A stretch of 64,000 bases of DNA from an uncultured Candidatus Saccharibacteria bacterium (GTDB lineage: Bacteria > Patescibacteriota > CAZHWT01). The translations under genes and the position numbers were made by a program. The notes beneath the pieces are model-generated. The model searched no databases and was not told the DNA's origin. It saw only the letters and a list, made by a program, of their open reading frames with translations. Positions 1 through 49,238 of the stretch are shown here, piece by piece. How positions within the stretch are numbered: the first letter of the stretch is position 1; every line of letters starts with the position of its first letter. Location of the stretch: the NCBI GenBank assembly GCA_964554805.1, contig CAZKPX010000001.1, forward strand, positions 48,245 to 112,244, written 5' to 3'.

Positions 1-25
1 TCAAGGTTATGCGTATTTAGCTTTA

Positions 26-715
26 ATGTTAAATAAGAAGGCCGACTTTGTACTGGAATATAAAGAGAAGGTTGACAATTCACTCAAGCTAAATGAGGTC
101 GACTGGAGTGCAATTCGAATAATGTTTATTGCTTCACGCTTCACTACGCATCAACTAGGCGCGATTAATTTTAAAGATTTACCTATTGAATTGTGGGAAT
201 CACGATTATACGAGGGTAATATTCTTAGTCTTGAGCAGAAGTCTGCCGATTCAAACGCAGCATCAATTCGAACAATTGAACGTACCGGTGCAAATGCGCA
301 AACTAATGCAGTCCAGGCAGAGGTGAAAACCTATTCAATTAACGATGTGCTTCAGCCCGAAACGCCTTCAAAACTGATTTATGACGAGCTAATGGAAGCC
401 GTGCGATCGTTTGACTCTGACATTAGCGAGTATGCACGTAAAGGGTATATCGGCATAAAACTTCAATCTGATACACGCACCATATTTTTTATTAACCCAA
501 GAAGCAATGGAATTCGGATTGAATTAAATCACACTCAACCTTCAGATTTGGTCGATCCTGATAATAAAGTTACCTATGTCAACAGCAGCCTAGAGCACAA
601 AAATCGTCACATGAGCTACATGTTGCTAACTTCCCAAGAGGATATAGAATATGCTGTCTCGATCATGCGACAAGTCTATAAAAGACATACTACAAATTTA
701 AAGAATCAACATTAG
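26..715 (+). CDS. DUF5655-like domain protein, uncharacterized. The ORF is open to the window edge, so it may be 5'-truncated.
   Basis: 229-aa ORF. The C-terminal block (GYIGIKL..TIFFINPRSNGIRIELN..DLVDPDNKVTYVNSSLEHKNRHMSYMLLTSQEDIEYAVSIMRQVYK) resembles the DUF5655 fold as I recall it. The reading frame stays open upstream to position 2. Confidence 0.4.
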   Translation: MLNKKADFVLEYKEKVDNSLKLNEVDWSAIRIMFIASRFTTHQLGAINFKDLPIELWESRLYEGNILSLEQKSADSNAASIRTIERTGANAQTNAVQAEVKTYSINDVLQPETPSKLIYDELMEAVRSFDSDISEYARKGYIGIKLQSDTRTIFFINPRSNGIRIELNHTQPSDLVDPDNKVTYVNSSLEHKNRHMSYMLLTSQEDIEYAVSIMRQVYKRHTTNLKNQH

Positions 716-737
716 TTAGTTGTCTAAATGAGGTACC

Positions 738-1085
738 ATGTTTAGAAAAAAACCAAGAATATCATTTGAAGAGTACTCCAATTTACTCAACAAAGTAGAT
801 GCACTTTCACATGCAATTGAAGGAATGCGCAATGAATTAGATGGACTTCAGGCGGCGGAATATTACAAAAAACACCGAAATGTTATACCAATTGATAAAG
901 ATCCGCTTATAGATGCAGCCATTAAAATTGCCCTTGATTATGATAAAGTAAGCTCAGCTTTATTGCAGCGACGCTTAAAGATAGGATATGCGCGAGCTGC
1001 GCGTCTACTGGATTTACTAGAACAAAAGGGCATTATAGGTCCTGCTGATGGTTCAAAGCCGAGAGATGTATTAAGAAGAACCTAA
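738..1085 (+). CDS. Small protein with an FtsK gamma domain (KOPS-binding winged helix).
   Basis: The C-terminal motif SALLQRRLKIGYARAARLLDLLEQKGIIGPADGSKPRDVL matches the FtsK/SpoIIIE gamma domain consensus. It starts 23 nt after the previous gene. Confidence 0.65.
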   Translation: MFRKKPRISFEEYSNLLNKVDALSHAIEGMRNELDGLQAAEYYKKHRNVIPIDKDPLIDAAIKIALDYDKVSSALLQRRLKIGYARAARLLDLLEQKGIIGPADGSKPRDVLRRT

Positions 1086-1333
1086 CCGAAATACTCTTAA
1101 AAGTGTCTCATTTGTCGCATTTACTAGAGATTAAATGTTTGCGACTATAACGATTGAAAGATTCTGTACCGCTACGCTTTAAACTGTTTATAGGCTATCA
1201 GGGATCTATCGAACCGCAACTGCGGTTATAGCGACGTGAGTCATCAGTATCGGTACGCTCAGCCAAGCAAAGCCCAACCATTTATGGTCGGGTTTTTGCT
1301 ATTGTGCACTTTTACGTTTGTAAATCTCAGAGC

Positions 1334-2527
1334 TTATTTTCGGGGGTTGAGACGGCGGCGGGTGGTGGGATTGAGGATGAGGCCGATAAGTGCCATTGCC
1401 AGGCCGAGAATCCCGGTCGAGAGCAATATAGTGCCGGTGTCGGGTAGCGGTCCGTTGGGGTCTGGTGTTGGGGTTGGAGTTGGAGTGGTGGCGGCGGCCA
1501 GGACGGCTGGGCCAACTGGGTCAACAATGTCTCCGTCAGCGCTGCCATCTGCATCCAAAGGGCCGCCATCAACTAATTCATAGGTCAGGGTAGTGACCTG
1601 GTGGCCGCCGATGGTGGCGGTGGCTATATCGGCGTCTTCAATTGAGCTGTAGGTTGAGTTGATGAATTTGCGAATCTGCCAACTGCTGGTATCGTATGCT
1701 TGGTCATAATAAATAGTGATCTGAGCCGCATCGCCAGGGTTGTCGCAGATTAGTTTAAAATCAACTAGCCCGACTGGATAGATTAATGATCCGTCCTGGT
1801 GGCTTAGGTCATCAGCAGCCACCACCGACACATCAGATAATTGTCTACAATCTCCTTCAGCTTCCAAGGTGATATAGGCACCTCCGCCGACCACCGGGTT
1901 GGGTAGACTGGTTACTGAAGTCTGGTCAGCGTCGGCTATACCGTCACCATTGCCATCGCCGTTATTGGGGCCGGCATTTTCAACAGCACTATCAACCCCA
2001 TCGCCATCAGTATCGGCGGAAACGGTTCGGAAATTCCAGGAGCTAGGATTGCTCATACCGGGAAAGTAGGCAGTGTCTTGATCGGCAAAGGCGGTATCGG
2101 TAATCAAGATGTAGTAGTCGGTGCTTGGGTTAAGATTGGCAGTAGGGTTGATGGTTATAGTAGCTGTGCCCTGGCCGCTGACTCGAGGGCCATTGGCAGT
2201 CAAGGTCTCAACCGTGCTGTCATCGGCGGCTTTTTTAATAGTAATGGTGCCGCTGTGGCCGGTTACCGCGCGGCTAAAGTGGATGATTAAGTTGGAGTCA
2301 AGGGCCACATTGACGGAGTTGTCAGCCGGAGTCAGGCTGTTGGCGGCTGGCTGCTCCGTTGTGGCCAGAGTGAATAAGCCCCCGGCTCCAAAATCCACCG
2401 TATTTTTCCAGATATTGCCGCCCTGATCGGTTAAGGCTGTCGGAGACTCATCGCTCAAGCTGCCATCGTTATCGGTGTCATAAATGAAGTAATACTGTCC
2501 GTCACCCAAGGCTGCTGGAATGTTCAT
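1334..2527 (-). CDS. C-terminal fragment of the surface protein: Ig-like repeats, Thr/Pro linker and LPXTG sortase anchor.
   Basis: Ends ...TPTPTPTPDPNGPLPDTGTILLSTGILGLAMALIGLILNPTTRRRLNPRK. This is LPXTG, a hydrophobic segment and a basic tail. Upstream, the frame continues through the TAA into ORF 2678..3046. Confidence 0.55.
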   Translation of the reverse strand: MNIPAALGDGQYYFIYDTDNDGSLSDESPTALTDQGGNIWKNTVDFGAGGLFTLATTEQPAANSLTPADNSVNVALDSNLIIHFSRAVTGHSGTITIKKAADDSTVETLTANGPRVSGQGTATITINPTANLNPSTDYYILITDTAFADQDTAYFPGMSNPSSWNFRTVSADTDGDGVDSAVENAGPNNGDGNGDGIADADQTSVTSLPNPVVGGGAYITLEAEGDCRQLSDVSVVAADDLSHQDGSLIYPVGLVDFKLICDNPGDAAQITIYYDQAYDTSSWQIRKFINSTYSSIEDADIATATIGGHQVTTLTYELVDGGPLDADGSADGDIVDPVGPAVLAAATTPTPTPTPDPNGPLPDTGTILLSTGILGLAMALIGLILNPTTRRRLNPRK

Positions 2528-2677
2528 ATCTGAGTCATTAACATCGAAGCTGAGGTGAACTGGTCCTACGTCGCCCTGCTCTTGTTTGTTCCATTTGCGC
2601 TCGAGAATACTGTAACCAGCGGGTGCTCCGGTGCCGGTCCAAGCAGCGTTGCCATTGTTGTCACCAATGACCAGGAA

Positions 2678-3046
2678 TTACAGGTCCTGAATATCGTGCC
2701 AGTCCGGGTGACCATTGCTGCCTTCAGTATCAGCCTCGATTGTAATCATGTTGGTGGCTGTCTGGCCCAAGGATTTGACTTGAGCCAAATTGGAAGCGTC
2801 GTCCCGGCCAATGCCAAACAAACCATTATTATAAGTGCTGGCCCCTGCCGCATCCTTGTCCCACATCAGATGGCTGCCACTAGCCAGATAGCTTTGAGGA
2901 GTGGATTGATCCAGGCTAAAGCCGTACTTTAGGGCCAGATAAGAATTGACTCGTTGACGCTCAATGGGGTCTAAAAACCGGTTATAAATGATAATTTTCG
3001 GAAATTTTGCCATTCCAATGTTCATACTCGCCTGATTGTGAGCCAA
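2678..3046 (-). CDS. Middle fragment of the surface protein (LamG C-terminal motif).
   Basis: FPKIIIYNRFLDPIERQRVNSYLALKYGFSLD resembles the LamG/concanavalin-like domain C-terminus. It is in the same frame as ORF 1334..2527. Confidence 0.45.
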   Translation of the reverse strand: MAHNQASMNIGMAKFPKIIIYNRFLDPIERQRVNSYLALKYGFSLDQSTPQSYLASGSHLMWDKDAAGASTYNNGLFGIGRDDASNLAQVKSLGQTATNMITIEADTEGSNGHPDWHDIQDL

Positions 3047-3740
3047 TCCGAATGCTGCCGTCCAAAAGTGTATCTAATGATTGGCCGTAAGCGGTAAATG
3101 TGCCGCCGTTGAGGGCTAGCTTGAGGGTGCCGTCTTCAACTGCACCATTGGCTAGCCTGGCACTGCCGGCCGGCAGCCAACTGCCGCTGCTGACGTACTG
3201 GTCTCCACCGACAACTAAGACTCCTGTTCCGGTGCCGCCCTGTGTGCCAAAGTCAAAGCTGTGATTGGCATTCTGCCATGATCCGTAACCAAATACGTAA
3301 CTCCAGCCGGATGGATCGTCATTAGAGGCGACCACAAAAATAGAGCGGTCACTGGTGCTGGCTGGCAGATTTGTATCAACGGCCTCATAGCGATTATTGG
3401 GATTGAACTGTAGGGCAGGATTGAAGTTTAGGCCGTCATGACTGAAGATGGCTCCTTGGGCCGTTTCTTGGGCGGCATTCCGTTGAGCGTTGGACTGGTC
3501 TTCCCAGGAAGCCACTTGCTGACCGTTGGTTGCCGCTGCACCTCCGCTTGCTTTGGCCCCGTGATCTGCGCTCAGCCACAGCTGTAGCCCAGAGGTGACT
3601 CCAGCCGGCCCGATTGTATCCGCTTCGACCTTACTAAAGTCCAGGACTGATAATTTGCTCAAGCAGGCCACGATCAGCAAGCTGCTGGCAAGAGAGACAA
3701 TCAGCACTAACAGGCGCGATGATTTCAAAGACGATTGCAT
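2982..3740 (-). CDS. N-terminal fragment of the surface protein (signal peptide and start of a LamG-like domain).
   Basis: Hydrophobic N-terminal signal sequence and a Gly/Ser-rich beta-rich domain. It ends within the LamG C-terminal motif because of the frameshift. Confidence 0.5.
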   Translation of the reverse strand: MQSSLKSSRLLVLIVSLASSLLIVACLSKLSVLDFSKVEADTIGPAGVTSGLQLWLSADHGAKASGGAAATNGQQVASWEDQSNAQRNAAQETAQGAIFSHDGLNFNPALQFNPNNRYEAVDTNLPASTSDRSIFVVASNDDPSGWSYVFGYGSWQNANHSFDFGTQGGTGTGVLVVGGDQYVSSGSWLPAGSARLANGAVEDGTLKLALNGGTFTAYGQSLDTLLDGSIRIGSQSGEYEHWNGKISENYHL

Positions 3741-4002
3741 AGTCTTTATTATTACAGTAAATCAGAGAACAGGCAAGCAAGGGATGGTGGGATTTTCGTT
3801 GTTTGGATAGCTAGTCTGACTGGAACGACTGAGAGGACCATAAAACTTTGAGCAACGATTCAATTAGTCTGAACTCGGAGCCTGAGTAAAGTGAGGTGCT
3901 AGGCATTGCTAACCACAGCGTCGTGTGAAGGACTTTTTTAAATCCTGACACTTAGGTTTCGTAGCCATGATTGGCTGATTTCCCTTTTGATATAATTAGA
4001 CA

Positions 4003-4386
4003 ATGTCCTCAGAAATATTTGACTTTAAAAAAGACGAATATCTTACAGCAAGAGGCGGAAAGCCTCATTTTTTAAATATCTACTGCGACCATTGCGGCAG
4101 TCATATACTTTTATACCAGAAAGATAATCCCGGTAAGCTAAAGCGGCTCTATCTGGACAGAATACTTTCTCCTCAAACTCTTACTGAATTAAACCAGCTG
4201 CCTATACATCAAATTTCTCAACTAAGATGTCACAGCTGCAATAGACTACTTGCTGTAGTCGAGGAATACGATAATGAGCCTCGCAAGGTATATCTACTGC
4301 TCAGCTTTGCCACAATAAATAAAGTTGCAAAAGGCGTCTATCCGCCTATAATACCGAAGCTTGATCTGAGCTCTAAAAAGAAGTAG
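4003..4386 (+). CDS. Small zinc-ribbon protein (CxxC...CxxC), uncharacterized.
   Basis: 127 aa with CDHCGS ... CHSCN cysteine pairs. Confidence 0.4.
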   Translation: MSSEIFDFKKDEYLTARGGKPHFLNIYCDHCGSHILLYQKDNPGKLKRLYLDRILSPQTLTELNQLPIHQISQLRCHSCNRLLAVVEEYDNEPRKVYLLLSFATINKVAKGVYPPIIPKLDLSSKKK

Positions 4387-4473
4387 CCAACGAGTCTTGC
4401 CAGCTTATGGTAATTATTGGAAATGGGCTGCAATGATTTAAGCCGGTTACATAGTTTTACTCTAATACTATCT

Positions 4474-4980
4474 TTAACGGCCTAATTGGAGTCGAATATC
4501 GCTAGTGAATAAGAGTCCGAGCAATGCGATGAGGATTAGGAGGAGGATGGTGCCTGCTATGATGATGAACTTATCTAGTTTTTGTGGGTCTATGTTTCTA
4601 CTACTAAAATCGTAGAATAGTATGCCCATCAGTCCGCCGAAAGTATTGGTGATGACATCGGTGATGTCGGTTCTGCCGATGCCGAAGATCAGTTGGATGA
4701 CTTCTGCTGTTAGGCTGAAGGTAAAAATAATGGCCAACCTTTGCCAAAGACTCATTTGCTTGAGACTGATACTTAAGAATAGGCCAAAGGGAATGAAGAC
4801 AACAAAGTTGTAGAGAGTTTCTCTGAGATTGACAAAGGAAACATAGGCAAATGGGGTAAGGTTGAGAACCCGGACTGGATAATCAAAGGCTGCGAATAGA
4901 TCAAATGAGAATTTGAACAAAATTAACCAAAGTAGGATTAGTAAATATACGATTAATACCGCTATCGATAAACGCTTCAC
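4474..4980 (-). CDS. VanZ-like family membrane protein.
   Basis: Multi-TM protein with VanZ-type motifs (IPFG...E.IQ...GR..D..D...N..GG). Confidence 0.55.
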   Translation of the reverse strand: MKRLSIAVLIVYLLILLWLILFKFSFDLFAAFDYPVRVLNLTPFAYVSFVNLRETLYNFVVFIPFGLFLSISLKQMSLWQRLAIIFTFSLTAEVIQLIFGIGRTDITDVITNTFGGLMGILFYDFSSRNIDPQKLDKFIIIAGTILLLILIALLGLLFTSDIRLQLGR

Positions 4981-5160
4981 GAGTGATACCTCTGGCAGTA
5001 TTTTAACAACTTTAGAGGATGTTTGCTGGGGTAGTTCAGCATCGAGTTAGCTTGATAAACACGTCTTTACCCTTTTATAAAAAGCGGTTGGCCATGAAAA
5101 AGTACCTGTACTAGCATGGTCAGGCATTTGAGCGAGGTGCGTGTTGGAATCAAATTCTAA

Positions 5161-5517
5161 CTAAGCTTGACGGAGAATCTTATCCATGGCTCGACCTCTG
5201 GCTAGTTCGTCGACTAGTTTGTCGAGATAGCGGATTTGGCGCATGAGGTCGTCTTCGATGTCTTCGATTTGGACACCGCAAATTTTGCCGGTGATGAGAG
5301 TGCGGTTGGGATTGGGGTGTGGGGCTTGGGTAAAGAAGGTTTGGAAGTCGGTTCCGTTTTTTAGATGAGTTTCTAATTGTGGTTGGGTATAGCCGGTCAA
5401 CCAGCGGATGACCTGGTCAAGTTCTGCCTGACCATAGCCGCCTTTTTGGGCTTTGGGAATATAGAACTTATAGACGCTGGCAACGCTCATGGCATAGACT
5501 CGTTGAGTGTTGGTCAT
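5161..5517 (-). CDS. DUF2200-like small protein.
   Basis: 118 aa. The N-terminus (RVYAMSVASVYKFYIPKAQKGGYGQAELDQVIRWLTGY) resembles the DUF2200 family. Confidence 0.45.
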   Translation of the reverse strand: MTNTQRVYAMSVASVYKFYIPKAQKGGYGQAELDQVIRWLTGYTQPQLETHLKNGTDFQTFFTQAPHPNPNRTLITGKICGVQIEDIEDDLMRQIRYLDKLVDELARGRAMDKILRQA

Positions 5518-5599
5518 AGGAATTCCTCTATTTCAAATTTTGATTATTGTAGCACGTAGACTTTGTTTGTGGTGCATGCCATACTGCTAAAAACCGTCG

Positions 5600-5628
5600 T
5601 TGAATTAAACATTCATACTGCCTATTGT
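5600..5628 (+). promoter_or_regulatory. Candidate sigma70 promoter (TTGAAT-17-TATTGT) for a plus-strand transcript in the divergent region.
   Basis: TTGAAT at 5600-5605, TATTGT at 5623-5628, and a second extended -10 TGtTATAAA near 5645-5654. Confidence 0.3.
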
Positions 5629-5659
5629 CACCGGAATGGGTTTAATGTTATAAATTTAA

Positions 5660-5910
5660 TTACCCCCTAGGCACCACAATCTGCACGAGACATTGTTGGA
5701 TACTGTCTCAGAGAGATACAGATTAAGGGAGGTAACCAGCCAAGCGCTGGTCCGCACAAAGTACAGGAGCGACCACCCTGCTACCTTAGGCTCTGATCGT
5801 TCACAGTATTTAACTGTGACAGAGAGTATGTTGGCGCAGTGCCTGTGCATGCATACAAACCCATTTCAAGGGGAGATTCTGTGACCGGACTCTCCCCTGC
5901 CCCTCTTTTT
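5660..5910 (+). ncRNA. Candidate structured leader or small RNA ending in an intrinsic terminator. Family unknown.
   Basis: About 250 nt of GC-richer non-coding sequence between divergent genes. It carries repeated CAGAGAG-containing hairpins and ends in the 5870-5910 terminator, immediately upstream of the NUDIX SD. Confidence 0.2.
5870..5910 (+). terminator. Rho-independent terminator or attenuator hairpin upstream of the NUDIX gene.
   Basis: Stem GGGGAGA/TCTCCCC (5870-5876 / 5891-5897), then TGCCCCTCTTTTT. Confidence 0.4.
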
Positions 5911-5937
5911 CAGCAAACTACTTTTAGGAAAAAACTT

Positions 5938-6345
5938 ATGCCAACAATTCGAACTAGAGCTGCCGTGGGTTGCAAGGGTTTTATTTTTAATACATCAGGA
6001 CAGCTGCTTTTGGTTAAGAAGCAATCACGACCGAATCGAGTTGGTCATTGGGATATTCCAGGTGGCGGGCTGGAGGTTGGTGAGCAACCAGGTCAAGGGC
6101 TTGTTCGCGAAATCATGGAAGAGACAGGACTGAGCTTGAATAGTTTTGAATTGCTAGATGTTATTAGCGATACCACTAAGCGGGGCTTTAGTGTATATAT
6201 CTTGTTTCGCGGAGTTTGCCAGGATGCCGAAGTACAATTGAGTCATGAGCATGAAGATTATGCGTGGATTGATGTGGCAGATATCCGTCAGTATCGACTG
6301 AAGCGACGATATCATGCAGCTATAAAAAGTCTGGCTGCGAATTAA
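5938..6345 (+). CDS. NUDIX hydrolase.
   Basis: Nudix box GGGLEVGEQPGQGLVREIMEETGL. Start chosen at ATG 5938 with the AGGAAAAAA SD. The longer track ORF from 5839 would overlap the terminator hairpin. Confidence 0.7.
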   Translation: MPTIRTRAAVGCKGFIFNTSGQLLLVKKQSRPNRVGHWDIPGGGLEVGEQPGQGLVREIMEETGLSLNSFELLDVISDTTKRGFSVYILFRGVCQDAEVQLSHEHEDYAWIDVADIRQYRLKRRYHAAIKSLAAN

Positions 6346-6347
6346 TA

Positions 6348-6815
6348 ATGTTAATTTACCTAGCTGGTCCTCTTTTTTCTGAGGCTGAGAGAGCTTTCAA
6401 TTTCGGTTTATGCCATCGACTTGAAGCCGCCGGCTTGTCGGTGTTCTTGCCTCAAAGGGATGGAGTTGAGCGTGATAAGCCTGAATACAAGGATCTGCCG
6501 AAGGAAGAAAAGCGGCGGATGTTGTTTGATTTAGATACTGTCAAAGTTATTGAATCGGATATCTTTTTGTTTATCCTCGACGGGCGTGTGCCTGATGAAG
6601 GAGCTTGTGTTGAACTTGGCTTAGCGTACGGTGACAAGAGATTTAATAAGCCCGAAAAGATGCTCATTGGCTTGATGACTGATAGTCAAGCTGCTTTTGT
6701 GGGTGGAAAATTAAACCCAATGATTGGTCAGGCGTTACATCAAATTTTTGATACCTGTGACGACTTAGTTACTTTTTTAGTAGATTCTATTGGCAAGGAC
6801 AATCCTGTCGACTAA
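6348..6815 (+). CDS. Nucleoside 2-deoxyribosyltransferase-like protein.
   Basis: N-terminus MLIYLAGPLFSEAER, typical of the PF05014 family. It lies 2 nt after NUDIX. Confidence 0.6.
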   Translation: MLIYLAGPLFSEAERAFNFGLCHRLEAAGLSVFLPQRDGVERDKPEYKDLPKEEKRRMLFDLDTVKVIESDIFLFILDGRVPDEGACVELGLAYGDKRFNKPEKMLIGLMTDSQAAFVGGKLNPMIGQALHQIFDTCDDLVTFLVDSIGKDNPVD

Positions 6816-6844
6816 TCGCGTCATAGGTCTGATATGATTGAGGT

Positions 6845-7360
6845 ATGAGTACTTTGCGTCTATTTATAACGATGGGGTTTCCTGGGTCAGGCAAGACTTA
6901 TTTTTCTAGTCGATATGCAAAACAGGAAGGATTGTTTCATTTAAACTCTGATCGAATGCGGTTGGAGATGTTTGATCACCCAACTTATCAACCAGAGGAA
7001 CATCGACAGGTGTTTCGCGTAATGGATTATGTAGCCGAAGAGCTATTATCTCAGAAGATGAGTGTTATGTACGATGCAAACCTTAATAAGGTTATTCATC
7101 GTCAGAAAGCTAGAGATCTTGCTAATACATGTGGCGCCGAGGTGATTTTGTTGTGGTTTAAAACTCCAGTTGAAGTGGCGCTGGAGAGAATTGCTCGGCG
7201 AGGTGATGGTCAGGATAAATATTATCGCAAGGTATCACCAGAGGTGCTTTATCGCATGAAAGATCAACTAGAAGAGCCTCAGGATGAGCCGCATATCGTT
7301 ATTGATGGGACGGCTGATTACGATACTCAGTATAAACAACTACAAAGAGGCATTGCATGA
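6845..7360 (+). CDS. P-loop kinase, AAA_33 / zeta-toxin-like ATP-binding protein.
   Basis: Walker A GFPGSGKT close to the N-terminus. Length 171 aa. Confidence 0.55.
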   Translation: MSTLRLFITMGFPGSGKTYFSSRYAKQEGLFHLNSDRMRLEMFDHPTYQPEEHRQVFRVMDYVAEELLSQKMSVMYDANLNKVIHRQKARDLANTCGAEVILLWFKTPVEVALERIARRGDGQDKYYRKVSPEVLYRMKDQLEEPQDEPHIVIDGTADYDTQYKQLQRGIA

Positions 7361-7689
7361 TTTCGTATGACGACTTTACTAGATTGGATATACGATTAGG
7401 TCGGATCGTTGAGGTTGCTGATTTTGCTGAGGCTCGCAAACCGGCTTACAAGTTGGTGATTGATTTTGGCGCAGAAATTGGATTAAAAAAATCGTCGGCT
7501 CAGTTGCCCAGCAACTACACTAAAGACGAGCTGGTTGATAAATTGGTTCTGGCAGTGGTTAATTTTGAGCCACGGCAGATTGGCCCGTTTATGTCGGAGG
7601 TTTTGACCTTGGGTGTTCCGGCTGAGGAGGGTGAATGCGTCTTGATTACGGCTGATAAACAGGCGCCCGTGGGAGGAAAGCTGTACTGA
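7357..7689 (+). CDS. tRNA-binding domain protein (CsaA/Myf-like).
   Basis: 110 aa with an OB-fold tRNA-binding motif (LDIRLGRIVEVADF...KLVIDFG...VVNFEPRQIG). It overlaps neighbours by 4 nt and 1 nt, consistent with an operon. Confidence 0.6.
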   Translation: MISYDDFTRLDIRLGRIVEVADFAEARKPAYKLVIDFGAEIGLKKSSAQLPSNYTKDELVDKLVLAVVNFEPRQIGPFMSEVLTLGVPAEEGECVLITADKQAPVGGKLY

Positions 7690-8699
7690 TGTCTAAAGCG
7701 AAAGTCGGTGTTATTGTGGCCCAAGTTGGGACACCCGAAGATACCAGCATCCCTGGCCTGCGTCGATATTTGAAGGCGTTTTTGTCTGATGAGCGGATTA
7801 TGGATTTGCCTCGGTGGTATTGGTTGCCAATTTTGCATGGCTTGGTGTTGCCGCATCGACCACGGCAAATTGCTCATCATTACAAGGATATTTGGACCAA
7901 GAAGGGCTCTCCTCTGCTTGTCCACTCACTGGCTCAAGTGAAAGGGTTGCAGGAGAAATTGGGCTGTGATTTTCAGGTTGAGCTGGGACTAGCTTATTCA
8001 AAGCCTAGCATGAAGCAGGCTATGCAAAAGCTGGAAGCGGCTGGAATTACCAGAATTGTGGTTCTACCGATGTTTCCCCAATTCTCTACCACCACGACCG
8101 CCTCTATCTATGATGAAGTGATGTTTTATGCTTTGGGACGCGAAAGGCGTACAGGTAAACCGATTAAGAAGTACGTGCCGAGCCTGCGGTTTATTGCCCC
8201 TTATTTTGATGATCCTGACTATATCTCAATGTTGGGGCGAGATGTGGCTGGTAAATTGAAAGCGCTGCCCCATAAGCCAGATACAATCCTGATCAGTTTT
8301 CATGGTATTCCTAAGCGATATGTTGACGAAGGTGACCCGTATCCGGAGCATTGTCGCACAACTGCGGATTTGCTGGCTCACGAACTGGGCTGGGGTGATA
8401 GTGATTATCAGATGACCTATCAGTCTCGATTTGGTCGAGAGGAATGGCTGCAACCGTATACGCAAACAGTGCTGCCAGCGTTGGCTGAGAAGGGTGTTAA
8501 GCGGGTAGCTATTGTGTCGCCCGGTTTTACGACTGACTGTCTAGAAACTATTCATGAGTTAGGCATTGAAGGAGCTGAACTTTTTGCTGAAGGTGGCGGC
8601 AGGGCTGATCAGGTTTACCACATATCTTGTTTAAATAGCAGTCCCGCTTGGGTAGAATACATGAATAGACTCGTGAGGAATAATGCCCAAGGCTGGTAA
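7689..8699 (+). CDS. hemH: Ferrochelatase.
   Basis: Strong ferrochelatase motifs throughout (VGTPEDTSIPGLRRYLKAFLSDERI ... QSRFGREEWLQPYT ... SPGFTTDCLET). Confidence 0.8.
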   Translation: MSKAKVGVIVAQVGTPEDTSIPGLRRYLKAFLSDERIMDLPRWYWLPILHGLVLPHRPRQIAHHYKDIWTKKGSPLLVHSLAQVKGLQEKLGCDFQVELGLAYSKPSMKQAMQKLEAAGITRIVVLPMFPQFSTTTTASIYDEVMFYALGRERRTGKPIKKYVPSLRFIAPYFDDPDYISMLGRDVAGKLKALPHKPDTILISFHGIPKRYVDEGDPYPEHCRTTADLLAHELGWGDSDYQMTYQSRFGREEWLQPYTQTVLPALAEKGVKRVAIVSPGFTTDCLETIHELGIEGAELFAEGGGRADQVYHISCLNSSPAWVEYMNRLVRNNAQGW

Positions 8700-9126
8700 G
8701 AAACTAACAAGGTATGGCCTCGTTTTGCTAGGAGTCACCACTACGATACTGGGAGTGATCGGTATTTGGGTGCCCGGACTGCCAACGACAGTCTTCCTGC
8801 TGATTGCAGCATGGGCTTTTGGCAAATCAAATGATCGGCTCTATCTATGGCTGAGGTCGATAAAATGGCTAAAACCAGCTCTGGACGAGGTTGAACTCTA
8901 CCAGCAGAATCGGAGTGTTAGTCGAAGAGCCAAGCTGGTCTCGCAGAGTTGTGCCTGGTCTTCGGCGCTGTTGAGTCTGATTATGATTCAAAATCCTGTT
9001 GTGTGGGGCATCACCTTTGCGGCGGCTATTAGTTGTAGTCTGTTTATGTGGTGGTCGCCGACGCGAAGCGACCCTGATCTTTATCAGGGCAGACTTGAGC
9101 GACGAGCGACAGACGACGAGTTTTAA
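8683..9126 (+). CDS. DUF454 (YbaN-like) small membrane protein.
   Basis: Two TM hairpins and the motif WVPGLPTTVFLLIAAWAFGKSN. It overlaps the hemH 3' end. Confidence 0.55.
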   Translation: MPKAGKKLTRYGLVLLGVTTTILGVIGIWVPGLPTTVFLLIAAWAFGKSNDRLYLWLRSIKWLKPALDEVELYQQNRSVSRRAKLVSQSCAWSSALLSLIMIQNPVVWGITFAAAISCSLFMWWSPTRSDPDLYQGRLERRATDDEF

Positions 9127-9129
9127 AAA

Positions 9130-9424
9130 CTATTCGGGTTGGCGATTGGATTGGCCATCCAGATGAAGAGTCGTTGAGGGATCGCTGTGGGTAGTGCCTG
9201 CGTTGAGGTGTTTGTCGCTGATCTGCTGACTATTTTTGATGTCAGGCACCAGAGCCACGGCATGGCCACGGCTTAAATCATAGTCTTCTTTGAGCCAGTT
9301 AATAATCTGGCCGGCTTTGGTTTGGGGATCATCAAAACCTTTAGTCTTAGCTATGTTGATAAACTGGTTAGGGGTTAGGCTGGTTTTTTATTCAATATTG
9401 TCTAGGTAGGATTGGAATGACATG
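9130..9424 (-). pseudogene. DUF4287-like gene interrupted by an in-frame TAA at codon 12 (9388-9390).
   Basis: The minus-strand frame reads MSFQSYLDNIE*KTSLTPNQFINIAKTKGFDDPQTKAGQIINWLKEDYDLSRGHAVALVPDIK.... No Met follows the stop. The family motif as I recall it is MSFQAYLDNIEAKTGKTP...KGFDD...AWLK.DY.LGRGHA. Confidence 0.5.
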
Positions 9425-9562
9425 ACTCTATGATAAGAGCATCGTGTGACGGGCGATCCTGATCAACATCGGGACAGGCTCGGGTGGCGGGAACGGGCAT
9501 TTGGTAAACTAGCAAAAAGGGCTTGAAGTTGATTCTTGTCGCTTGTCGCTTGTCGAGCGTCG

Positions 9563-10342
9563 CTATTTCAGACGCTGACTGAGTCCGATGCCGCCGAATT
9601 GTTGGCAGATGTAGGTTGGTTGGTGATAAGAACTCAGACTAGCTGCATAGGTGTAGCCCAGATCGGCAAATTGATGGAACTGGTGCGGGTCTTTGGTTTG
9701 AGAGGTAATTAACCAGCGGGCAAAAGCACCTCGCGCTATCTTGGAATGAACGACTACTTGAGTCGGTTGTTTCGTAACAGAGTTGATGGTTAAGAAGGCA
9801 GGGGCAATGATAGTCTTGTCTGCATGGTATTTGGTAATTACTTGGCTATACTCTACCGAAGAAGTGTTGATGATCAAATCTGATTGGGGGATGTTGCTGT
9901 AGATTTGATCTCCCCAGAAGGAATATAGATTGTCGAAAGGTGCTGTGGGGAAACGGTAGGCCATCTCTAAACGGTATGGCATAATGCCGTCGAGAGGTCG
10001 AACGAAACCATACAGACCGGATAAGATAATTAAATGTTGTTGGGCGTATTGTCGTTGCTTTTGCGACAGAGAATCTGCCTGTAGGCCGCTGTAAATATCT
10101 CCAACAAAACTGTCGATGGCTAGTGACTGCTGATCGAGCTGCGCGCTCCAACGCTGGTATGTTTGACGAACCTTGTCCGCTAATGGCTCAGATATATGCA
10201 TTATCTGAGATAGCTGAGTGGCGGATAGACTTTGCACATACTCAGCCAATTGCTGGGCTTTGTCGATCAGAATTGGTTGAGTGGGTGAGCTACTTGGCCG
10301 CGGCGAGCGCATTGTCTTGGAGGAGTGTAGGAGGATAACCAT
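9563..10342 (-). CDS. yaaA: YaaA/UPF0246 (DUF328) peroxide-stress family protein.
   Basis: Motifs ILSGLYGFVRPLDGIMPYRLEM and the overall length match YaaA. Confidence 0.65.
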   Translation of the reverse strand: MVILLHSSKTMRSPRPSSSPTQPILIDKAQQLAEYVQSLSATQLSQIMHISEPLADKVRQTYQRWSAQLDQQSLAIDSFVGDIYSGLQADSLSQKQRQYAQQHLIILSGLYGFVRPLDGIMPYRLEMAYRFPTAPFDNLYSFWGDQIYSNIPQSDLIINTSSVEYSQVITKYHADKTIIAPAFLTINSVTKQPTQVVVHSKIARGAFARWLITSQTKDPHQFHQFADLGYTYAASLSSYHQPTYICQQFGGIGLSQRLK

Positions 10343-10368
10343 TGGTTCGAACGACTAATCTTTATTAA

Positions 10369-10800
10369 TTAGGCTCTGCCCATTGCGGGGTGTTGACTCA
10401 TCACATACTTGTACGAATCGGCTATTAATTGTCGAAGGATCTGCACATCGATGTCTGATAGTTTTTTAATATACAAGCAAACCTTGCCGGTTTGATGAGG
10501 ACCCAATTTACCTAGCAATTCTGGGGTGCTGGTTACGTCATTGGTGAGATAGATGGCTAATTTACCTTTGCGCGGAGAAAAAGCTGCTGCTGCCATCTCA
10601 CCCTGTCGCCCACTTTGATAGTGATAGTGGTAACTGCCGAAGCCGATAATGGCTGTGCCCCACATTACTGGCGGATATCCGGTAATATCAGTCATTATTT
10701 GGCACAACAGTCGAGTGTCGGATTGTTGCGGCTGATCTAGCTTGTCAATAAATTGTTCAACAGGGATATCTGTGGCGACGGTTTTGATGGAGTCAGGCAT
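10369..10800 (-). CDS. DUF1801 (YdhG-like) domain protein.
   Basis: 143 aa with a typical DUF1801 sequence pattern. Confidence 0.45.
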   Translation of the reverse strand: MPDSIKTVATDIPVEQFIDKLDQPQQSDTRLLCQIMTDITGYPPVMWGTAIIGFGSYHYHYQSGRQGEMAAAAFSPRKGKLAIYLTNDVTSTPELLGKLGPHQTGKVCLYIKKLSDIDVQILRQLIADSYKYVMSQHPAMGRA

Positions 10801-28018: not shown

Positions 28019-28396
28019 TTATTTGATGGGGCTACTGCCAGACGACTGGTAGAGAACCTTGCCCTCTTCAAGTATGTCTTGGATAAAACCGTCTCCTTGT
28101 CGTTGCAGCAGCTCTACTTCTTCTGGAGTGTAAACTAAGGGGGCAATATTAGGCAAGACATCGGAAGTAACTGCAATGGCTTTTTTGATTCGCTGTAGAA
28201 ATCGCGTTCCACCAACAGACTCAGTGACGATTAAGACATCGACACTAGATTCCGGGCGCGCATGGCCTCGAGTCAGACTTCCAAATAGATAAATACTATC
28301 CGGCTTGAATTCGGCAATTAACTTATTGACGGCGTCGTCGAGCTGTTGACGAAACGCTGCACCTGTTGATAAATATCGACTGCTTCGGCTAGACAT
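28019..28396 (-). CDS. Minimal nucleotidyltransferase (MNT) of a HEPN/MNT toxin-antitoxin pair.
   Basis: IYLFGSLTRGHARPESSVDVLIV is the GS...D.D polymerase-beta nucleotidyltransferase motif. It overlaps the HEPN gene 3' end, so the start is uncertain. Confidence 0.65.
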   Translation of the reverse strand: MSSRSSRYLSTGAAFRQQLDDAVNKLIAEFKPDSIYLFGSLTRGHARPESSVDVLIVTESVGGTRFLQRIKKAIAVTSDVLPNIAPLVYTPEEVELLQRQGDGFIQDILEEGKVLYQSSGSSPIK

Positions 28397-28752
28397 TCTT
28401 CAGCATCCTCCTTTTCTATAAATTCATGTGGACTTACTTTTTCGGCTGGAATAGCAAATGGATACCGGGAAACAAAGGTGGCTGCCTCTAGTGAGGAGAC
28501 CGAGACCCTGACTTGATCGCGAACCCTGTCATCCAGATGATTGGCCAACCCTAATAATCCACCCAAACGGTGACCTCGAGGAGCGATGCCATCCAGATGG
28601 ATGAGCAGCCCCTTCAGTGCTTTCTCGGCTGACTGTTGAGCTTGAAAACTAGCCCATTCAAAATAGCCATGATCCATGCTGAGTCGGGCTGCTTCCAGAT
28701 CAAATCCCGATTGCTTCATCCACGCTTCGAATTTGGCTCGTTTGTTTACCAT
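28318..28752 (-). CDS. HEPN-domain protein, partner of the MNT.
   Basis: The HEPN helix AEKALKGLLIHLDGIAPRGHRLGGLLGL contains the R-x4-6-H-like motif. Its start abuts the stop of the upstream wHTH gene. Confidence 0.65.
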   Translation of the reverse strand: MVNKRAKFEAWMKQSGFDLEAARLSMDHGYFEWASFQAQQSAEKALKGLLIHLDGIAPRGHRLGGLLGLANHLDDRVRDQVRVSVSSLEAATFVSRYPFAIPAEKVSPHEFIEKEDAEECLAEAVDIYQQVQRFVNSSTTPSIS

Positions 28753-48542: not shown

Positions 48543-49157
48543 TCATTTATAGGCGATGACTTGAATCTGATAAGCATTTTCGATCATTGCCTGGTCGACA
48601 AGGTCAATGCTCTTAAATCCAACCTTAGTCAGCAAAGCATTTAAGTCATCTGCTTGCCAATAGCAGAAATATCGAGGCGCATTTATTTTGGCTTCTGACC
48701 AAGATTCTCCATGGCCTTGCTTAACAGTAAAAGCAAAGCGACCATTTTCCTTAAGTGCGTTGTAAATTTTAACTAGCACTTGCTCTGTTTCGGATCGAGT
48801 GAAATGCAACAAGACAGCATTGGCAAATAGTAGGTCATAAGGACCTACTAGCTTGTCCGTGATTGCATTAAAATGTCTGGCTGAGAAACCACTCTTATTT
48901 AAGTGATCGACAAAACCTGTGACTGCATCGGTGCATTGAACCGTATGGCCTTTTGATTGCATATAGGCCGCATCACGACCAAAAGCGCTACCTAATTCTA
49001 AAATGGCAGCGTCTTGCGGCAAGCCATTAATGGATCGATCAATCCAGGCCTTAACCACGTCGCTAGCCTGAGCAGGAGTCCCATTAATATAGTCTTGTAA
49101 GTGCTGCTCGTACGATTGAATGGTGGTGGAATTTTCTTGACTCATATCTTGACTCAT
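48543..49157 (-). CDS. Class I SAM-dependent methyltransferase.
   Basis: SAM-binding motif ILELGSAFGRDAAY. Start set at ATG 49157 because the track ORF (to 49232) runs through the tRNA. Confidence 0.6.
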   Translation of the reverse strand: MSQDMSQENSTTIQSYEQHLQDYINGTPAQASDVVKAWIDRSINGLPQDAAILELGSAFGRDAAYMQSKGHTVQCTDAVTGFVDHLNKSGFSARHFNAITDKLVGPYDLLFANAVLLHFTRSETEQVLVKIYNALKENGRFAFTVKQGHGESWSEAKINAPRYFCYWQADDLNALLTKVGFKSIDLVDQAMIENAYQIQVIAYK

Positions 49158-49161
49158 ATAT

Positions 49162-49238
49162 TGGTCGGGGTGAGAGGACTTGAACCTCCGGCCTCTAGTA
49201 CCCCATACTAGCGCGCTAGCCAACTGCGCCACACCCCG
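49162..49238 (-). tRNA. tRNA-Pro (anticodon GGG).
   Basis: CGGGGTGTGGCGCAGTTGGCTAGCGCGCTAGTATGGGGTACTAGAGGCCGGAGGTTCAAGTCCTCTCACCCCGACCA. It has a 7-bp acceptor stem, D and T arms, anticodon loop aT-GGG-gT and an encoded CCA. Confidence 0.8.

Follow-up and report, generated by a model that had tools for sequence, protein, structure and literature searches.

The 64-kb window analysed here (the whole stretch of DNA, 64,000 nucleotides, nt) carries a gene for a lectin-like surface protein of the Patescibacteria that is broken into three pieces. The three open reading frames (ORFs) in question, 3740–2982 (252 amino acids, aa), 3046–2678 (122 aa) and 2527–1334 (397 aa), all lie on the minus strand and are consecutive parts of one 801-codon gene. 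A first, sequence-only reading of this DNA had assigned the same three ORFs to one gene of about 800 codons; its coordinates are exact on the minus strand, and the 801-aa product obtained after repair of the frame is co-linear with intact homologues. That reading also had fragments 1 and 2 out of frame with each other and fragments 2 and 3 in one frame, parted only by the TAA at 2678–2680, and three-frame translation bears out both points. Reading from position 3740 gives the frame of fragment 1; the common frame of fragments 2 and 3 (3046/2527) is offset by one base, and its only stop all the way from 3046 to 1334 is the TAA at 2680–2678. When one A is dropped from the A4 run at 2998–2995, a single 801-codon frame results, interrupted only by the TAA. 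The parts of the gene are, in the order of translation:

2982–3740, minus strand: fragment 1, with codons 1–248 in the authentic frame, encoding the N-terminal hydrophobic signal/anchor segment and most of the LamG/ConA-like lectin domain
End of fragment 1, minus strand: four out-of-frame codons (NYHL), then TAA at 2984–2982
2995–2998, minus strand: frameshift site, an A4 run in GAA-A-ATT with a net gain of one base
2681–2994, minus strand: authentic coding part of fragment 2, codons 249–353 (codon 249 itself being 2995–2993), encoding the tail end of the lectin domain's last strand, then a helix (ERQRVNSYLALKYG), then half of DUF8202 (the first)
2678–2680, minus strand: in-frame TAA where homologues have a conserved codon for Glu (GAA to TAA, a single G to T change on the coding strand)
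1334–2677, minus strand: fragment 3, codons 355–801 plus the stop codon at 1336–1334, encoding the rest of DUF8202 and everything beyond it
2359–2024, minus strand: Big_5 immunoglobulin (Ig)-like domain of fragment 3
Between Big_5 and the choice-of-anchor U domain, minus strand: Asp-rich linker DTDGDGVD...GDGNGDG
1789–1502, minus strand: choice-of-anchor U domain
1447–1433, minus strand: LPDTG
1432–1373, minus strand: hydrophobic segment, followed by the basic tail NPTTRRRLNPRK

The apparent starts of fragment 2 are accidental, being a TTG at 3046 for the ORF finder and an ATG at 3025 for the gene caller. In the alignment, the ATG at 2527 falls on a position that is internal (M/F/I) in the homologues, and it is therefore not a real start; homology already resumes (FLVIGDNNG...) at the codon right after the TAA, 150 nt upstream of this ATG of the ORF finder. 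Gene callers run on contigs of the Logan collection cut the gene into the same pieces (252, 115 and 397 aa), and at NCBI the fragments are deposited as three separate proteins of a 446,789-nt contig, each forming a singleton cluster. Opposite the conserved middle of the broken gene there is also an antisense, GTG-initiated ORF (2555–2932, plus strand, 125 aa), which is most likely a shadow ORF and is without independent support.

Two lesions at conserved coding positions

The frameshift site is contained in GGCAAAATTTCCGAAAATT (3011–2993, minus strand). From the alignment with 11 intact homologues, it can be seen that removing one A from GAAAATT joins ...WNGKISE to IIIYNRFL... without any gap against the pattern W.G.ISE(V/I)I.Y.R. 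Residues G244, I246, S247, E248, I250, Y252 and R254 around the junction are invariant in the window and these 11 homologues, and the frameshift sits between the invariant E248 and (V/I)249, within the invariant lectin-domain strand ISE(V/I)I. The nucleotides at this site are TC(N) GA(A/G) GT(N) AT(N) in six homologous loci and TCC GAA A ATT ATC in the window. The spacing between the ISE(V/I)I motif and the DL-E-FLV motif is 322 nt in the window versus 321 nt in all six homologous loci, and the defect is therefore a net gain of one base and nothing else. The simplest route to this insertion would be a V to I change (GTT to ATT) followed by the gain of an extra A. The sequence-only reading had located the frameshift in an A/T homopolymer region, which is an overstatement: the base runs at the site are only A4, T3 and A4, with no real homopolymer tract, and of the 20 runs of at least 4 bases in the gene, six are longer (5–6 bases) and in frame. 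On the AlphaFold2 model of a homologue (P0002), the frameshift is predicted to map inside β-strand 235–246, which is the final long strand of the jelly-roll fold.

The second lesion lies 105 codons beyond the first. The Glu residue that it removes is present in 11/11 of the closest homologues and is nearly invariant among 30, and its codon is GAA in four and GAG in two of the six homologous loci, so that a single G to T change explains the TAA. In the P0002 model this stop would map to the first residue of strand 348–354, in the next domain. Among the 74 window ORFs TAA is the commonest stop codon (34 ORFs, with 26 using TAG and 14 using TGA), a usage that fits the standard bacterial code with TAA as a normal terminator.

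Comparison with related genes, which had been put forward as a check, finds the homologues intact and contiguous at both lesion sites. Over 93–97% of its length, the 801-aa product of the repaired frame aligns with intact proteins of 782–790 aa at 49–53% identity (E values of 1e-208 to 1e-240), a co-linearity far beyond chance, and about 25 further proteins match its N-terminal two thirds. A scan of GTDB representatives gave only homologues of the Candidate Phyla Radiation (CPR), 54–58% identical, and the hosts of the homologues are Woesebacteria (UBA5941), Saccharibacteria and Paceibacterota metagenome-assembled genomes (MAGs). No relative more than 60% identical at the broken gene was found in these searches.

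One homologue (contig L006) seemed at first sight to be split as well, at 7080–7095, but the site is a run of N with duplicated flanks, that is, a scaffold gap artefact and not a frameshift. The MAG to which this contig belongs is labelled 'uncultured Gammaproteobacteria', and the contig is probably mis-binned CPR DNA.

Domains, fold and anchor of the encoded protein

The repaired product reads, from its N-terminus, as a signal peptide, a LamG/ConA-like lectin domain, DUF8202, Big_5, the Asp-rich linker, the choice-of-anchor U domain, LPDTG, a hydrophobic segment and a basic tail. Two of these domains score above threshold on the repaired product by hidden Markov model (HMM), namely Big_5 (PF13205, residues 461–572, 48.9 bits versus a cut-off of 23.6) and choice_anch_U (NF041766, residues 651–746, 56.9 bits versus a cut-off of 32). 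For DUF8202 (PF26628), a precomputed match is on file for the 115-aa product of the gene caller and for almost every homologue. The Laminin_G_3 domain (PF13385, residues 128–258, spanning the frameshift) reaches 22.1 bits, which is under its cut-off of 27.6, and falls to 11.7 bits when the broken fragment 1 is scored alone; many homologues have a precomputed PF13385 match.

Kyte-Doolittle hydropathy gives exactly two hydrophobic segments, residues 9–28 and 770–789. The second one follows LPDTG (765–769) directly, is 20 residues long and is succeeded by the RRR-containing NPTTRRRLNPRK, so that an LPXTG motif, a hydrophobic segment, a basic tail and an N-terminal signal-like segment are all present. 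The best HMM matches on the C-terminal hydrophobic stretch are under threshold (TIGR01167, 13.9 bits versus 15.9; PF00746, 13.7 versus 20). No sortase was detected among the approximately 55 scanned window ORFs or in the 4.2 kb upstream in contig L010. Residues 23–26 at the end of the N-terminal hydrophobic segment read I-V-A-C (3674–3663, minus strand), resembling the lipobox of a lipoprotein; this is probably coincidental, the Cys not being conserved in the homologues.

The fold was approached through the AlphaFold2 model of homologue P0002, whose mean predicted local distance difference test (pLDDT) score is 76, with values above 85 over residues 40–570 and about 90 over residues 40–250. 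Foldseek relates this model to the lectin-like jelly rolls of trans-sialidase, clostridial neurotoxin HC and the carbohydrate-binding domain of an arabinanase (E values of about 3e-8 to 1e-6). A jelly-roll lectin fold is thus supported for the predicted structure of the homologue rather than of the window protein itself (Foldseek probability 1.00, E of about 3e-8). No solved structure matching by sequence was found. The label of an LPXTG/LamG surface protein, as given in the sequence-only reading, consequently holds as far as the motif, the hydropathy and the homologue's predicted fold are concerned, while the HMM scores behind it are partly sub-threshold.

The lesions in other assemblies

Exact-protein look-ups of neighbouring genes led to Logan contigs from three sequencing runs. 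The reproducibility of the lesions was judged at the assembly level. The Logan contigs were made with a different assembler.

L001 (SRR16798008): window 1988–10386, 8399 nt, 100.000% identical without gaps; crosses both lesions
L010 (SRR16798009): window 1–3391 plus 4254 nt upstream, 100.000% identical without gaps; crosses both lesions
L002 (SRR16797978): window 3357–4922 only, 100.000% identical without gaps; outside the lesions

In addition, some 55 other window ORFs were scanned with Pfam and no split gene was seen among them; those with matches were covered over essentially their full length, including GluRS, Asp/AsnRS, RelA/SpoT, RecJ, SecD, SecF, RecA, RNase Y and a P-type ATPase. Apparent same-strand overlaps in the window are separate genes or over-extended TTG starts. 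The window assembly is not error-rich.

Several Logan contigs have their ends inside the broken gene, L011 ending at 1825, L001 starting at 1988, L002 starting at 3357 and L010 ending at 3391, none of them at a lesion. These ends could reflect low coverage, repeated k-mers in the stretch coding for GDGNGDG, or strain micro-diversity.

A probable recent pseudogene

Taken together, we regard this locus, with a probability of about 0.8, as a genuine and evolutionarily recent pseudogene of an 801-aa surface protein gene in a Patescibacteria (CPR, Saccharimonadia-like) genome. Of the three explanations offered in the sequence-only reading (pseudogenisation, slipped-strand phase variation and sequencing error), it is the only one that fits, the lesions being at conserved coding positions and reproduced in the assemblies. 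In the columns where the other eleven sequences all agree, the window deviates only three times besides the stop (T109A, V249I and F347W), and each of these changes is conservative; the intact homologues show 1–13 deviations of the same type each. Moreover, 447 codons stay open after the TAA. With the frame open and the conserved residues intact, the inactivation is therefore recent, and the sequence comparison suggests that the gene was under purifying selection until recently.

An error of sequencing or assembly, by which one or both lesions would be consensus artefacts of a gene that is really intact, might find support in the insertion being in a short A run and in the source contig being metagenome-assembled, with the lesions seen in assemblies rather than in reads. 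However, the two Logan assemblies (SRR16798008 and SRR16798009) agree with the window at 100% identity over stretches of 8.4 kb and 3.4 kb, both sites included, which implies accurate reads and therefore disfavours an error. A G to T substitution is not a homopolymer-type error, the A4 run is too short to trouble short-read chemistry, longer runs of the same gene are undisturbed, and none of the other scanned window genes is split; we therefore consider an artefact very unlikely. Still harder to accept is phase variation, in which slipped-strand mispairing at the A/T tract would switch the adhesin between on and off. Genes for surface adhesins are typical examples of phase-variable loci, and the shift does lie in an A run, but there is no hypermutable simple repeat here: the tract is only 4 bases long, the six longer runs (5–6 bases) of the gene are in frame, and Tandem Repeats Finder reports nothing at either lesion. 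The tract has the same length in the assemblies of two runs, and the homologues, with GAA GTN at this site, have no tract at all. Furthermore, the downstream TAA would hold the gene off at any tract length, and slippage cannot revert a nonsense substitution, which makes switching of this kind highly improbable. We give even less credence to programmed recoding, in which a +1 ribosomal frameshift together with read-through or reassignment of TAA would yield the full-length protein. Some Patescibacteria lineages do have altered codes (UGA is Gly in Gracilibacteria and Absconditabacteria), and the downstream frame is perfectly preserved. On the other hand, TAA is the most-used stop of the window and TGA serves as a stop too, the reading frame is unbroken at both sites in all 30 homologues, which means that neither event is conserved, GAA-AAT-TAT is not a known +1 shift context, and two different recoding events would be needed in a single gene.

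Somewhat less remote, although unlikely as well, is a polymorphic or adaptive loss, with the knocked-out allele coexisting with an intact one or having been selected, for example as an escape from the use of the protein as a phage or host receptor; the truncated 252-aa secreted piece might then keep some role. The presence of two lesions in a single gene with intact neighbours would agree with this, and the ends of Logan contigs from three runs inside the gene (1825/1988, 3357 and 3391) could reflect micro-diversity. None of these ends, however, coincides with a lesion, and low coverage would account for them just as well. Four hypothetical repaired products were looked up as exact sequences among 15 billion proteins and none was present; in JGI metagenomes neither a pattern scan fitting both the A3 and the A4 alleles nor a protein-based scan gave a match. 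The truncated piece, moreover, is without part of a jelly-roll core strand. A more far-reaching version, to which we would assign only about one chance in ten, is that a lectin adhesin binding a host or partner was lost or switched off under selection in an episymbiotic member of the Patescibacteria (phage escape, partner change), an intact allele maybe persisting at low frequency within that community, or, in its exotic variant, that the full-length protein is still made via a +1 shift and TAA read-through.

Some points do weigh against a recent pseudogene. The NCBI and Logan contigs may share sequencing runs; the assemblies are independent, but the samples behind them need not be. A minority intact allele may exist, the evidence being at the assembly level. 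The ancestral state was deduced from distant homologues, none of them exceeding 60% identity, and the preserved frame with its 447 open codons would also fit continued use by some route.

If the gene is indeed a recent pseudogene, its history may be pictured as follows. From what is known of Sec signal peptides, LPXTG sorting and lectin/Ig-like adhesins, the intact protein would have left the cell by Sec, would have been held at the wall or membrane by its C-terminal signal, and would have bound to a partner or surface through a ligand there, probably a glycan. The gene would then have been struck by two spontaneous mutations that were independent of each other, the one-base insertion at GAA-A-ATT and the GAA to TAA nonsense change. 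In the present allele, translation should stop four codons past the insertion. The sole product would be a secreted stub of 252 aa whose jelly roll is incomplete, with half of the last lectin β-strand and everything downstream missing. The downstream pieces, even if translated, could not reach the surface because they are without a signal peptide. We infer a loss of function of the present allele, which appears to be dominant in the sampled population. As a pseudogene of this sort it is an ordinary one, of a known kind of Patescibacteria surface protein, and no new mechanism is suggested.

The finding bears mainly on annotation: the three ORFs should be merged into one entry flagged as a pseudogene, and it would be wrong to count the 252-, 115/122- and 397-aa fragments as separate protein families. 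The locus adds one more example of the recent loss of a surface lectin/Ig-like protein gene in a Patescibacteria lineage with a small genome, in which attachment to partners probably depends on surface proteins. Should the lesions prove polymorphic in reads, the locus could mark adhesin turnover in the population.

Neighbourhood and other features of the window

On one side the broken gene is flanked by an FtsZ / 317-aa / FtsK-gamma group and on the other by a 127-aa gene, VanZ and DUF2200. This neighbourhood is not conserved at the homologues, near which only the DUF2200 gene recurs, and in the other orientation; the synteny comparison of homologous loci established no positional orthology. 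The 64-kb window holds no paralogue of the broken gene. Two signal-like elements flank the gene:

3748–3776, minus strand: promoter-like site (TTGCCT-17-AATAAT, with TG), 8 nt ahead of the start codon (ATG, 3740)
1273–1292, minus strand: terminator-like hairpin, 42 nt past the stop codon; it fits the consensus only, and its T tail is weak

Neither rises above chance level, and the promoter-like site is to be read as a candidate only, the regional count of such sites not being above that of shuffled sequences.

The RecA protein encoded in the window is 81–91% identical to relatives on metagenome contigs and 71–74% identical to proteins of the Patescibacteria group and Candidatus Saccharimonadales. 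No paper was found for the sequencing-run accessions, and a literature search on sortase and LPXTG proteins in Saccharibacteria brought up nothing relevant.

Elsewhere in the window, a HEPN-domain protein (28318–28752) overlaps a Pol-beta-type nucleotidyltransferase (28019–28396) by 79 nt (28019–28752, minus strand), an arrangement that looks like a HEPN/MNT toxin-antitoxin pair. A DpnI-like methyl-directed endonuclease (60662–61429, plus strand) is divergent from an N6/N4 DNA methylase (59674–60528, minus strand), which is an odd nuclease/methylase pairing, and a DUF6996/DUF6997/DUF7226 protein (58410–59777, minus strand) comes next after the methylase. The only tRNA in the 64 kb, tRNA-Pro(GGG) at 49162–49238 (minus strand), overlaps the 5′ end of a GTG-initiated methyltransferase ORF (48543–49232), whose true start therefore lies further downstream. 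At 5839–8699 (plus strand) there is a series of small metabolic/salvage genes that is unusual for a reduced genome, coding for NUDIX, nucleoside 2-deoxyribosyltransferase, a Zeta-toxin/AAA_33-like kinase, a tRNA-binding domain protein and a ferrochelatase/CbiX-like protein. Another surface component is encoded at 63339–63983 (minus strand), where a type IV pilin-like protein has an N-terminal prepilin-type methylation motif (N_methyl).

Comparison with known systems

The closest counterparts of the repaired product are the DUF8202/Laminin_G_3/Big_5 proteins of Patescibacteria, such as P0002 (790 aa), P0004 (782 aa) and P0005 (788 aa). They have the same domain order, share the motifs GPAGV, NFNP, ISEVI, KYGFSLDQ, LFGIGRDD and EFLVIGDN, and carry a C-terminal hydrophobic anchor; their genes are intact, whereas that of the window has the +1 frameshift and the nonsense codon. 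C-terminal signals vary within this group, being APNTG, LPATG, LPDTG or a plain hydrophobic tail, and distant Bacteroidota homologues end in a type IX secretion system (T9SS) tail (PF18962) instead of an LPXTG-type end. The 'choice-of-anchor' idea behind the NCBIfam naming fits such varied anchors. Like the choice-of-anchor proteins (NF041766), the window protein has its choice_anch_U domain directly before the sorting signal, the only difference being the inactivation upstream.

The signal-like N-terminus, LPDTG, hydrophobic stretch and RRR tail also resemble those of the LPXTG sortase substrates of monoderm bacteria. In contrast to these substrates, the sorting-signal HMM scores are under their cut-offs, no sortase is among the scanned window ORFs, and translation should stop at codon 252, so that anchoring would now be moot. 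With phase-variable adhesin genes that carry homopolymeric tracts (contingency loci, for example those of Neisseria, Haemophilus and Campylobacter), the gene has in common that a surface protein is out of frame in an A run. It differs from them in having a tract of only 4 nt, of the same length in two run assemblies and absent from the homologues, and in carrying an extra, irreversible nonsense mutation.

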